From Dictyostelium discoideum (Eukaryota), in the NCBI GenBank assembly GCA_000004695.1, contig CM000150.2:2176001-2240000 (forward strand): DNA of 64,000 nucleotides. Direction: 5' to 3'. Positions 27,001 to 39,000 of this stretch are shown one piece after another. How positions within the stretch are numbered: the first letter of the stretch is position 1; every line of letters starts with the position of its first letter. Made by a program: the position numbers.

Positions 27001-30000
27001 AGAGATTAGATCTTTTAATGTTTCAAATAACAATGATAAAGATTTTTTAGCTTCATTATTTTTTCAACAACTTTTATCAACAATCGATACACTATTATCA
27101 GGTTCATATGGTGGTTTAAAGGTTACTCGTCTGATACCATGTATTCATTGTATTGAAAAGGACCCACATTCAGAACCACATCTTTTCGACATTAATAGTT
27201 GTATTTCACAATTATTGCTTGGTAAATCACAATTGGTATGTGGTAAAGATTCAACTACCCCAGTCCGTATTGACTATATTGCTCCAGATCTTTCGATTAA
27301 AAAAATACCAATCCTTTTAGAGGACCAAGTGGTTTGCGAAGAACAAATCGGTGTTGGTGGTTTTGGTTTAGTTCATAAAGGTAAACTCATTCTTCAAGAT
27401 AAATCATTGGTAGTTGCAATTAAATCCTATATCGTTGGTAATAGTAGTGCCTCTGATATCATTAGAAAATTTCAAGAATTTCATCATGAAATGTATATCA
27501 TGTCATCGTTAAATCATTTGAACATTGTAAAACTATTTGGTTCAATGCAAAACCCACCAAGAATGGTTATGGAATTTGCACCACATGGTGATCTCTATCA
27601 TTTCCTAGAAAAAAAAAAAAATATTAAATGGTCTTTCAAAGTGAGACTTATGCTTGATATAGCAAAAGGTATCGAATATTTACAAAATCAAAATCCTCCA
27701 ATCGTTCATCGTGATCTACGTTCACCAAATATTTTCCTATTTTCTCTTGATGAGAATGCTCCAGTCTGTGCAAAAGTAGCCGACTTTGGTCTATCTCAAC
27801 AATCTCTTTACTCTGTCAGTGGTTTATTAGGAAATTTTCAATGGATGGCTCCTGAAACAATTGGTGCTGAAGAATCATACACTGAAAAAATTGATACCTA
27901 TAGTTTTTCAATGATTCTCTTTACAATTCTAACTGGTGAATGTCCATTCGATGAATTTACCTCATTCGGTAAAATGGAATTTATTAGAAAGATTAGAGAA
28001 GAGGACCTTCGTCCAACAATTCCTTCTGACTGTCCACCAACTATCTCAAACCTAATAGAATTATGTTGGTCCGGTGACCCAAAAAAAAGACCTCACTTTA
28101 GTTATATTGTTAAAGAATTAACAAATTTTTATTATAACCTTAATCTAAGCCCCATCCCTGAACAAAAATCAATTAATGATAAATCACCACACCCTGATTT
28201 AATTTCAAATGGAGTTCCAAAATTACAAATTGCTAAATAAAAAATATAAATATAATTGAAAAATGGGTAATAATGATATTCATTTACTCAAAAAAAAAAA
28301 AAAAAAAAATAAAAACAAAAAAAAAAGAAATAGATTTAAATAAAATTTTAACTGTTTAATACAATAATATATAATTATAATAAACTATACACATTTTTAA
28401 TTTTTAATTTTTATTGTAAGTTGTTATTATTATTATTATTACTGTTATTTGATCTCATAAAACCATCAAATGATGTAAAAGGACTTGTTTGTGATGGTCT
28501 GATTGGAGATGTTGTAGTTGATGAAGTTGGAGAAACAGTATTTGTTGTGGTTGTTGTGGTTGTTGTATTTGCTGATTGTTGTTGTTGTTGTTGTTGTTGT
28601 TGTTGTTGTTGCTGTTGTTGTTGGCTATTGAAAATTGAATGGTGTCTACTAAAAAGGTCATAGGTGTTGTTAAAAAAGTTTGTTGGATTTGTTGTTTGTT
28701 GATTTCCAGAGTGGTCAAATGGATTTGAGATAAAACGATTGGTAATCTTAAGGAAATGTTCATTTTGGTCTGGTATGGAAATTTCATTGCTACCATACAC
28801 ACCATTATTTGCAGCTTTGGAAATAGTTTGGGTTTGTTGAACACTACCGTTATTATCAAGTGACGGTAATTGCTGTTGTTGATGTTGTTGTTGATGTTGT
28901 TGTTGTTGATGTTGTTGTTGATGTTGATGCTGATGTTGATGTTGATATTGTTGTTGTTGTTGTTGATGTTGTTGATGCTGTTGTTGTTGCTGTTGTTGTG
29001 GAACTAAACCACCAACACTTCCACCACTACCAGTAGTACTATTATTGTTGTTATTATCATTTGATGGTGTTGAAAAACTATTAATTCCATTGAGACCAAT
29101 GAAACCACTACCAATTCCTACAAATGATTTACCACTACCTATTACTCCAATTGATTTAAAACCATCTGTTGAACCAATAATTGTATTTAACCAATTGGTT
29201 GTACCCAACTGTTCAGATGGTCCAAATGATTGAAATGGATTATATTGATTTGATTGAGGTGGTGGCGATGGTGAAGTTGATGATTGAGGAGGTGATGGTG
29301 ATTGAGAATTTGGAATTCCGAAAATATTGGTTGGAGTTTGATAAATGTTGGGTGGCTGTGAATAAATACTTGTAGATTGTGGTTGTGGTTGATGGTAAAT
29401 TTGTTGTTGAGGTTGTTGTTGTGATTGTTGTTGCTGTGGTTGTTGTTGTTGTTGTTGTTGTTGTTGTTGTTGTTGTTGTTGTTGTTGTTGTTGTTGTTGT
29501 TGTTGTTGTTGTTGCGAGAAAATGGTTGGTGATTGATTTTGGTAAGATTGTGGGTGTAAATTTGGTTGTGATTGGTTATTATTAGCACCACTAACATTAT
29601 TGGTTTGTGGGTTCTTTGGAACATAGGTTTTCTTTTCCCATTTTCTTTGTTTTGAATAATAGTCTTTTTGAATTGGTTTATTTTGGTTTAGTTGTTGTTG
29701 TTGTTGATAATGTTGATTGTGGTTTTGATGTTGATGATAGTGTTGGTTTTGATGTTGATGTGGTTGTTGTTGTTGTTGTTGTGGTTGTTGTGGTGGTTGT
29801 TGTTGTTGTTGTTGTGGTTGTTGTTGTTGTGGTTGTTGTTGTTGTGGTTGCTGTGGAGGTTGTTGATATGGTTGTTGTTGTTGGGAATTATTTTGTGGTA
29901 TTTGATGTGAATCAACTTTCTTTTTTTGGAATCTCTTTCCTTTTCCTTCATACTGATCATGTCCTTCTCTCTTTTTAATATTTTCATCATTTTTATGTTT

Positions 30001-36000: not shown

Positions 36001-39000
36001 ATTACTATTAACAACTTGTGGTTTAATAGGAGTATCTCCATTAACTTTATTTATATTATCACTACTGATTTTAGTATTTGTTTTACTATTACTATTACTA
36101 CCTTTACTACCATTTTTATTACTATTACTTTTAGTGGTAGTGGTAGTAGCTTTTTGAAAAGATTTAGCAGTTAAAATTGTTGGTGTTGTACCTGTATTTG
36201 TAATTTCTATATTATTAAGATGAACATAACCTGAAAATTCTTTATCTTTAATTTTTTGATGTTGTTTCTTAATATTATTATTAATATTATTATTATTTGA
36301 ACTACTACCACTATTACTAGATGAAGAAAGTGATTTTTCTTTATCTTTTATTTTTAAGGTTGATTTCACCTTTTTTGTAGGTTGTGGTGAAGGTGGAGGT
36401 TCTGTATTTTTAATTATAGTTGATGAAATTGTATTTGGATTACTAACCACAACTGATTGTAAATAAGATGTATCTGTTGTGGTTATAAATTCCAATGTTA
36501 AACTTGCATCTTGACCATTTTGCATCTCCTTTTGAAGTGCTTTTTGTAAAAGGGTAGATTGTTTTTGAAATAATTCCTGTGTCTGTTTTTGCATTTGCTG
36601 ATTATGATATTGTTCACGTTGTTCTTTTGTCATTAATGATAATTTAACCTTTTCTCCATTAATAATAATTTCTTTTTCTTCCTCTTCTTGATCATCATCA
36701 TCATCATTATTATTATTGTTATTATTATTATTGTCTTGATTGCTATCCCTATTTTTATTTTCATCTATAATTGTTGATGGTTTTGATTTTGAAGATGAAA
36801 CTGCGGTTGCTGCTGCTGCTATGATTGACTCTGACTCCTCATTAGAAAATGAGGATGTGTCACCATCGTTAACTAATTGTGGTGACTTTGAATTTGAACT
36901 ATATTTATAATGAACTCCTAATGGTTTCTTTGCATTTCTATCATTTGAATTTTCATATACATATATTACTGAATCTTCAATCTGTGTTTGTTGTTGTTGT
37001 TGTTGTGTTGGTGTTTGTGTTTGTTTTTGATTAATTTTAATTGGTTGTACTTTCTCTTGATTCAATGCTATTATTAAAATAATAATAATAAAATAAAAAA
37101 GAAAGAATTAGAATAAACAATAAAATTATTTAATTTAATTATTCTTTTATTTTTTTTATTTTATTTTTTTTTATTTTATTTTTTATTTTTTTTTATTTTT
37201 TATTTTTTTTTTTTTTTACGAAAATGTGAAATTACATACCATATGAAAATGAAGAATTTGAAACCAATAGCACTAAAACTAACAAACACAACACTATGAA
37301 ATGATAAATTGAATTGAATTTCATTCTACCATTCATTTTAGTGTGTGTGTGTGAGGTAGAACTTAAATTTTTTGTGTAATTTTTTTTTTGTTTTTTTTTT
37401 TTTTTTTTTTTTTTTTTTATAAAATGATTAAAAAGTTTTTTTTTTAAAATTTTTTTTTTTAAATTTTTTTTTTTTTATTTTTTTCTAATAATAAATTTGA
37501 AAAAAAATTAATAAAATAAATAAATAAATGAAATATTTGAAAAAAAAGAAAGAATAAATAAATAAATAAACAAATAATTAGAATTTTGAGAAACTGAGAA
37601 ATAAAAAAAAAAAAATAAAAAATAAAAAATAAAAAAATAAAAAATAAAAAATAAAAAAAATAAAAAAAAATTAAAAAAAATGAAAATTAAAAAAAAAAAA
37701 TAAAAAAAAAAAATTTTTTTTTTTTTAAGTCATGTCACAACTTATCTCAATTGTGGTTTGAAATGATCCATTAAAATTTTATTATCATTTTTTTTATTAT
37801 TTTTTATTATTATTTTTATCTTTTAATTTTCATTTTTTTTATTTTTATTTTTATCTTTTTTTTTTTTTTTATTTTTATTTTTTTTATTTTTATTTTTATT
37901 TTTAATTTTAATTTTCATTTTTATTTTTATTTTTATTTTTAATTTTTTTTTTTTTTTAAATTTTTTAATTAGTGGGTTCCGAAATAACGATTTGAATAAA
38001 AACCACAACCAGGTAAAATGAAACCTTCGTCAGATAATTCTTTATCGATGGCACTAACTACGAATTGAACATCAGGGAATCTATAATTTAAATATAAAAT
38101 ACCTTTGAGTGAAGCAATAACGCTAACAAATATAATTTTATTTTCAGGAACACCATGATCTAATAAAACTCTAATTGCCATCTCTGATGATGCACCAGTT
38201 GCAATTGTTGGATCTAAAACTAAAACATGAGAATCTGTAACATTTGGTAATTTTTCATAGAATAACTTTTTTTTTTTTTTTTCCCATAATTTTTTAAAAT
38301 AAAATAAAATAATAATTACAGTTAAACGTTGAAATTATTTCAAAGTATAAAATAAAAAATCAGTTTTTTTTTTTTTTTTTTTTTTCCATAATTTTTTTAA
38401 AATAAAATAATAAAAAAAAAATATTAGTTAAATTAAACATTGAAATTATTTCAAAGTATAAAATTAGATTTTTTTTTTTTTTTTTTTTTTTTTATTATTA
38501 TAAAAAATAGACTTACATGTGGTTTTTTCATTTCATCAGATTGAATTAAAACTTTTCCAGTTCTAATACCTTTACAAATTGAACGAAGTGGTTGTTCCAT
38601 ACAACCACCAGCTCTTAAAACAACTAAAGCACAAATTCTACTATTTAATTCTTCACCATGATAAAGTGAACCAGTTGGAGTAGTAACAATCTTTTCAGTG
38701 AATGGTAAATAAGTTAAAGCCTCTTCAATGATTAATGAACATAAACGATCAGAATAGAAAACGAAATCACCGACTTTGGTATCCTTATTTCTAAGTATTG
38801 AAAGCATTGCTTTAATTTGATTAGTTTCCTTAATTACATGAATTGAACTTGGTAATTCCAATCCCTCCAAATCCAATTGTGCTGTCTTTTCTGGATCAAA
38901 TCCTCTCTCTTTTAATTTTAATCTAATATGATTTGTTAATAAATTAATTGCAACAATATTATCTGATCCTCTTGGCACAATAATATCTGCATATTTTTTT

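Follow-up and report, generated by a model that had tools for sequence, protein, structure and literature searches.

The 64,000-nucleotide (nt) stretch of the Dictyostelium discoideum genome analysed here (assembly GCA_000004695.1, contig CM000150.2, positions 2,176,001 to 2,240,000; hereafter the window, whose own numbering is used for all coordinates) has a guanine-cytosine (GC) content of ~14-32% throughout, and its short GT..AG introns and its genes are those expected of a social amoeba of the dictyostelid group. On its minus strand, between a ROCO-family kinase gene and a putative uracil phosphoribosyltransferase (UPRTase) gene, lies a four-exon gene predicted to encode a protein of 2846 amino acids (aa). 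The locus is assigned, with a probability of about 0.85, to the TMEM131/TMEM131L family as a dictyostelid member, and its product would be a membrane protein of type I that belongs to the early secretory pathway. As such it is an ordinary, previously uncharacterised ortholog in a known and widely distributed family. A literature search found no paper on TMEM131 in Dictyostelium, and the genome probably already carries an automatic annotation for the gene.

Gene model and family membership

The features of the gene and of its predicted protein are listed in Table 1. The joined coding sequence of the four minus-strand exons comprises 8541 nt and is translated into 2846 aa plus a stop codon, without an internal stop. 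All three introns have GT..AG ends and none of their lengths is a multiple of 3, therefore splicing is required to maintain the frame. Two Pfam matches run unbroken over exon junctions, that to TMEM131_like_N (profile positions 1-84 of 84) over the exon 2/3 junction (aa 568/569) and that to Ig_TMEM131_2 over the exon 3/4 junction (aa 683/684). The gene has a 2163-codon open frame in DNA of ~25% GC, which is far beyond chance. About half of intron 2 is occupied by a (TAA)20 array (35381-35441).

No ATG lies in frame in exon 2 before aa 178, so that a start exon further upstream is needed. All in-phase ATG-to-GT candidates between exon 2 and the upstream UPRTase gene (37969-38978) were enumerated, and 37336-37240 was the sole combination of start and donor with the consensus GTATGT that feeds the acceptor at 37067 in phase. 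The same start codon has two further in-phase donors, both weak, non-consensus GT dinucleotides, and a signal peptide is obtained from M1 or from M5 alike. The model of four exons and 2846 aa proposed in the initial annotation, including a signal-peptide exon joined to 37067, holds as a genuine gene whose junctions are predicted from the sequence. Exon 3 had been described in addition as a clean cassette-like exon; its size and its symmetric phase were confirmed, and nothing points to skipping. The exon spans the rear of Ig domain 1 and the front of Ig domain 2, so skipping would cut two folded immunoglobulin (Ig)-like modules, and the cassette reading, being without supporting evidence, was rejected.

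Three TMEM131-specific Pfam models were matched above their cut-offs, with Ig_TMEM131_2 placed directly behind TMEM131_like_N, in agreement with the homology to TMEM131 that had been put forward as putative. The third of them, Ig_TMEM131L_5, is split by a polyasparagine (poly-N) insertion, and its profile positions 14-65 are matched after the tract. An exhaustive HMMER search with aa 508-850 against 1.84 billion representatives returned 325 homologs at E<=1e-3, 128 of them at E<=1e-10, with no match above 40% identity, and a word-indexed protein search with a clean 343-aa query returned no match, not even the query's own entry. The homologs sampled have the architecture N, Ig2, Ig3, Ig4, Ig5. 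The name 'transmembrane protein 131' is carried by homologs from a rodent, flies, a cricket, a sea star, a crinoid and an acorn worm, and unnamed proteins were found in Synstelium, Cavenderia, Endostelium, Telonema, Willaertia, Percolomonas and Chromosphaera. Since the sources are both animals and protists, the family is spread across eukaryotes, collagen-free lineages included. The amoeba protein is colinear with TMEM131 proteins of dictyostelids, of other protists and of animals. In rodent TMEM131, the block of N and Ig2 and the block of Ig5 and the transmembrane (TM) segment can be aligned with the amoeba protein, the latter over aa 1866-1981 of the query and 1032-1141 of the rodent protein.

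The closest named relatives are those of Synstelium and Cavenderia. Three dictyostelid homologs were compared, namely P0001 (EukProt entry), P0005 (Synstelium polycarpum) and P0002 (Cavenderia fasciculata DFA_03961). They are colinear with the query from Ig2 to 160 aa beyond the TM segment, with 38-44% identity in the second half, a nearly identical TM and juxtamembrane region (the TM segment itself in P0001 and P0005) and islands of the tail in common; P0001 is colinear with the full-length protein in seven segments (aa 601-2140). In the Cavenderia homolog, too, a signal peptide precedes a long N-terminal spacer of low complexity. In contrast to the query, which they fall short of by 870-1250 aa, these homologs are without both poly-N insertions. 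Their public models look faulty, and two of the three seem incomplete at one end. DFA_03961, whose UniRef name is 'Cyclic nucleotide-binding domain-containing protein', ends at 1044 aa with its last ~150 residues seemingly out of frame. P0001 is without a signal peptide and without a detected TMEM131_like_N, and P0005 is without a signal peptide and retains the second half of TMEM131_like_N only.

Table 1. Coordinates of the TMEM131-like gene and of predicted protein features in the window
Feature	Position	Strand	Details
Exon 1, start codon and signal peptide MNGRMKFNSIYHFIVLCLLVLVLLVSNSSFSY(A)	37240..37336	minus	97 nt; from reading frame, splice sites and hydropathy peak at aa 5-17
Intron 1	37068..37239	minus	172 nt, GTATGT..AG
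Exon 2	35461..37067	minus	1607 nt; ~480 aa luminal spacer and initial 56 residues of TMEM131_like_N
Intron 2	35342..35460	minus	119 nt, GTAAGT..AG
Exon 3	34997..35341	minus	345 nt, phase 0/0; rear of Ig domain 1 and front of Ig domain 2
Intron 3	34903..34996	minus	94 nt, GTATGT..AG
Exon 4	28411..34902	minus	6492 nt with stop codon; remaining ectodomain, TM segment, cytoplasmic tail
TMEM131_like_N (PF12371), aa 513-598	35252..35628, spans intron 2	minus	E=1.4e-24, 86.6 bits (cut-off 28.8); predicted local distance difference test score (pLDDT) ~90
Ig_TMEM131_2 (PF24495), aa 616-712	34816..35200, spans intron 3	minus	E=6.4e-10, 39.3 bits (cut-off 27)
Poly-N (31 x AAT), aa 855-885	34297..34389	minus	Beta-hairpin loop insertion, third luminal module
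Fifth TMEM131 Ig-like domain, Ig_TMEM131L_5 (PF24501), aa ~1743-1923	31183..31725	minus	E=3e-10, 40.2 bits (cut-off 27.8)
N29-H-N53 tract, aa 1776-1858	31378..31626	minus	83 codons: 79 AAT, 3 AAC, 1 CAT
Single TM segment, aa 1955-1977 (AKIIFIICMIILFFVLIFLTWKE)	31021..31089	minus	Hydropathy up to 3.2; helix predicted
Cytoplasmic tail, aa 1978-2846	28414..31020	minus	869 aa; 24% Q, 43-60% low complexity
Polyglutamine runs of the tail	30526-30606, 29440-29514, 28576-28623	minus
GVIGSGK, aa 2602-2608	29128..29148	minus	Instance of G-x-IG-S/T
YDLFSRHHSIF, aa 2764-2774	28630..28662	minus	C-terminal aromatic motif

Luminal modules, topology and repeat tracts

The ectodomain was modelled by AlphaFold2 with homolog alignments in two parts, aa 506-1250 (mean pLDDT 73.5, predicted template modelling score (pTM) 0.65) and aa 1251-1990 (mean pLDDT 64.7, pTM 0.55), and many segments in both models are above pLDDT 90. 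About eight PapD/ASH/MSP-like beta modules, a count read from secondary-structure strings and not from a computed partition, occupy aa 513-1933, with a long helix after them at the TM segment. The modules match the seven-stranded beta-sandwich of solved ASH/PapD/MSP domains; a sequence search found no TMEM131 structure in the PDB. Other proteins of the ASH/PapD-like/MSP superfamily, such as Hydin, CFAP65/74, CEP192, VAP and bacterial pilus chaperones, are cytosolic, ciliary or bacterial periplasmic and do not have the architecture, the TM segment and the tail in common with the amoeba protein.

Only two strongly hydrophobic segments were observed, at aa 5-30 (signal peptide) and at aa 1955-1977, together with a marginal hydropathy peak inside a beta module (aa ~708-728). 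The TM segment starts ~30 aa after Ig_TMEM131L_5. From the signal peptide, a type-I topology is predicted, with a large luminal part, one TM segment and a cytoplasmic C-terminus. The repeated beta-sandwich modules, the signal-peptide-like N-terminus and the single internal hydrophobic segment of the initial annotation are all recovered in this way, the first from the models and the other two from hydropathy. Its cytoplasmic tail of about 1500 aa is not, since the TM segment at aa ~1955-1977 leaves a tail of 869 aa.

Both long poly-N tracts lie in loops of luminal domains. The tract at aa 855-885 is modelled as disordered (pLDDT <50) with two confident strands on either side, and no counterpart was found at that position in P0001 and P0005. 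The N29-H-N53 tract, found within an (ATT)n array at 31366-31640 (91.7 copies, Tandem Repeats Finder), forms a disordered stretch in a loop of the membrane-proximal (last) Ig domain, again with confident flanking strands, where P0001 and P0005 have only ~7 residues. As neither tract has a counterpart in the short loops of these two homologs, they are lineage-specific loop insertions. The N29-H-N53 tract precedes the TM segment and is therefore luminal; an array of about 87 ATT copies had been noticed earlier and is real, but it had been placed in the tail, while it lies inside the last Ig-like domain. The possibility that the poly-N tracts are introns was rejected, as they are in frame, have no GT..AG ends and are flanked on both sides by strands of one domain.

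Runs of at least five identical residues account for 303 aa (10.6% of the protein), and a SEG-like entropy mask covers, depending on the threshold, 27-38% of the whole protein and 43-60% of the tail. The description of the protein as about one-third homopolymeric is thus approached only in the sense of broad low complexity and does not apply to strict runs. Lengths were compared with those of 36 homologs with alignable Ig5 and TM segment. The first domain starts at aa 513 (homolog median 84, maximum 265), the distance from the first domain to the TM segment is 1443 aa (median 1018, maximum 1314) and the tail has 869 aa (median 630, maximum 859). The tail tops the homolog range, yet it is only 1.4 times the median, so the extreme tail expansion suspected at first is not borne out. 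The greatest expansion is the ~480-aa N-terminal luminal spacer, which is of low complexity and rich in N, S, K and T, and not the tail. The repeat tracts are lineage-specific padding of a kind usual in this AT-rich amoeba genome.

Behind a Q-run in the N-terminal spacer, a HYKY..SPQL motif was observed (aa 83-98, exon 2, window region ~37040-37090), with counterparts at a similar position in Cavenderia (HFRY..SPQL) and Synstelium (HFKY..TPQL). A BLAST comparison of the N-terminal 520 aa with the dictyostelid relatives returned this weak match only (E=5), and it may be due to chance.

Tail motifs and neighbouring genes

Within the cytoplasmic tail, two short motifs separated by Q/H/P/S/T runs resemble those of homologs. 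The pattern G.IG[ST], of which GVIGSGK is an instance, was present in 14 of 32 homolog tails, as against 0.34 on average and no more than 3 in 500 shuffles, and its rate in the tails was 25 times that in the ectodomains; it reads LGPIGSKKSP, for instance, in insects and PGAIGSK in echinoderms. The aromatic motif YDLFSRHHSIF lies 83 aa from the C-terminus. Among 71 long homologs, 27 have [YF][DNES][PL]F within the last 110 aa, compared with 1.4 expected (maximum 6 in 500), and this is 23.5 times the rate elsewhere in the same proteins. Its counterparts include FDPFSSLSSIW (Ceratitis), YDPFTSPSSIW (Drosophila) and YNPWRIW, which lies 28 aa from the end of rodent TMEM131. Both motifs are present in 12 homologs, and G.IG[ST] comes first in all 12; the order in the query is identical (aa 2602 and 2764).

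When the dictyostelid tails were set side by side, conserved islands were observed at the TM and juxtamembrane region, SPDKS..KKKK, YVPK, YNPF, GVIGSGK, IPD..FL and YDLF..HHSIFN. A G-x-IGS motif and a C-terminal YDLF..SIF motif, in the order seen in the family, are kept in this repeat-rich tail, which is newly observed here. The second of these corresponds to animal FDPF..IW and YNPWRIW, within the TRAPPC8-binding (TRAPID) region of the human protein.

Downstream, the gene is met by a ROCO-family kinase open reading frame (ORF) on the plus strand (24545-28240, 1231 aa), with leucine-rich repeat (LRR), Roc, COR-A/COR-B and protein kinase domains. It runs towards the 3' end of the TMEM131-like gene, and ~170 bp separate the two stop codons. 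Directly upstream and on the same strand, the ORFs 37969-38181 and 38451-38978 correspond to C-terminal (profile 138-206) and N-terminal (3-108) parts of UPRTase, respectively, and look like one intron-split gene. Also in the window are an Atg3/Atg10-type autophagy E2-like ORF (Autophagy_act_C; 40150-40653, plus strand) and a spermidine/spermine synthase ORF (41041-41688, minus strand).

Further along the plus strand, two adjacent ORFs of 581 aa each (45088-46833 and 47009-48754) are 65% identical and share a signal-peptide-like start, MK(Y/F)ISFF(V/I)TLILISILNNFVLSSG. No Pfam match was found for 45088-46833, the only member of the pair that was scanned, and the pair has the appearance of a tandem duplication, the secreted protein being of unknown kind. 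A local sacsin-like cluster is formed by the ORFs 50283-53921, 54161-55900 and 59847-63428 (plus strand), each with a match to the sacsin (SACS) domain; the ORF 56014-58074 (686 aa), for which Pfam gave no match, may belong to the middle sacsin-like gene as an additional exon.

Proposed function and alternative explanations

The architecture agrees with that of animal TMEM131 (C. elegans TMEM-131, Drosophila CG8370 and human TMEM131; Zhang et al. 2020, PMC7015688). Common to both are a signal peptide, PapD-like Ig modules in the lumen that bear the signatures N, Ig2 and Ig5, a single TM segment right after Ig5, and a cytoplasmic tail that is long and disordered and in which G-x-IGS is followed by a C-terminal aromatic motif. 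The amoeba protein differs in being ~1000 aa longer than typical members and in the poly-N loops within two of its Ig modules. Several observations weigh against the assignment and the function it implies. Ig_TMEM131L_3 (PF24498) and Ig_TMEM131L_4 (PF24499) were not detected by Pfam in the amoeba protein even at E<=1, being too diverged, and these regions can be aligned through closer homologs only: aa 882-1072 with residues 385-556 of homolog P0004, and aa 1580-1765 with residues 1010-1161 of P0001, in which Ig3/Ig4 are detected. The same regions of the amoeba protein are modelled as beta modules by AlphaFold2. A phmmer comparison of five tail segments with 150 homologs gave nothing significant, so that the likeness of the tails is at the level of motifs only, and the amoeba motif has F in place of the functionally implicated W of animals.

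Going by the homologous proteins of worm, fly and human, the PapD-like modules on the luminal side would hold secretory client proteins within the endoplasmic reticulum (ER), and the C-terminal aromatic motif of the tail would recruit TRAPPC8/TRAPPIII, upon which the clients would leave in COPII carriers. Human TMEM131 requires its last 143 aa to bind TRAPPC8, with a contribution from two conserved tryptophans (PMC7015688). In our interpretation, the aromatic motif may be the TRAPPC8 contact. Whether the amoeba protein combines client holding in the ER with COPII export driven by TRAPPC8/TRAPPIII is rated at roughly even odds. The clients in an amoeba would not be fibrillar collagens, whose C-propeptide is the known animal client and which are not expected there.

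The same protein could have another main job, that of a receptor-like factor promoting ER-phagy, in which the disordered tail would engage Atg8 and the autophagy machinery and link the load of luminal clients with ER turnover, a role that has been proposed for C. elegans TMEM-131. It would be compatible with cargo export, and it agrees with the 869-aa tail, 43-60% of it of low complexity, and with the retention of the gene in an organism without fibrillar collagen. It also draws on the worm findings, where knockdown of tmem-131 blocks age-onset ER turnover independently of trpp-8, and where the tail of TMEM-131, disordered like the tails of ER-phagy receptors, binds GABARAP partly via an FVHV LC3-interacting region (LIR) (PMC12992112). 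However, a match to the extended LIR pattern (xLIR) is absent from the tail of the query and from those of two dictyostelid relatives, bare [WFY]xx[LIV] cores number 8 in 869 aa, which is about the chance level, and no conserved LIR position can be aligned, so that ER-phagy as the main function is considered unlikely, though less so than the readings that follow.

A large tandem Ig-like ectodomain with a single TM segment is also the layout of adhesion receptors, and ASH/PapD-like domains are found in many unrelated contexts, so the protein might act at the cell surface or in the extracellular matrix, in adhesion or matrix organisation, and share TMEM131 domains without a role in ER export. 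This is improbable, given that the three Pfam matches are specific to TMEM131 and go beyond a generic fold, that the match is colinear from end to end with the TM and juxtamembrane region included, and that family-specific cytoplasmic motifs are retained. Least probable of all, and very unlikely, is an artefact of the model, either two merged genes or a pseudogene with untranslated repeat tracts. The splice junctions are predicted ones, and the collections searched yielded neither an identical nor a close protein; yet one uninterrupted exon holds both the spacer of low complexity and the beginning of the first domain, the open frame is of a length that chance would not produce at this GC content, and conserved domains in the same frame flank every repeat tract.

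Membership of the TMEM131 family, with a probable place in the early secretory pathway, is preferred over these alternatives. Since a factor of collagen secretion is kept, tail motifs included, in the absence of fibrillar collagen, a more general ancestral role is favoured. It is tentatively proposed, as a view that we hold to be somewhat less probable than its opposite, that TMEM131 might be an ancient pan-eukaryotic adaptor for handling ER clients, of which the collagen role would be a later animal specialisation. Its output would pass through two short motifs, G-x-IGS and a C-terminal [YF][DN][PL][FW]..[IF][WF], surviving from amoebae to mammals within disordered tails that otherwise drift freely.

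For annotation, the value of the analysis is that a long multi-exon model is confirmed and its topology corrected; the biological value is modest. The gene offers a clean case of long homopolymers (31 and 83 asparagines) tolerated in loops of folded luminal domains, and the two short tail motifs are indicated as a conserved cytoplasmic interface of the family. If the proposal is true, the amoeba gene would be a collagen-free and genetically tractable system in which the ancestral clients and the question of the TRAPPC8 contact could be addressed.

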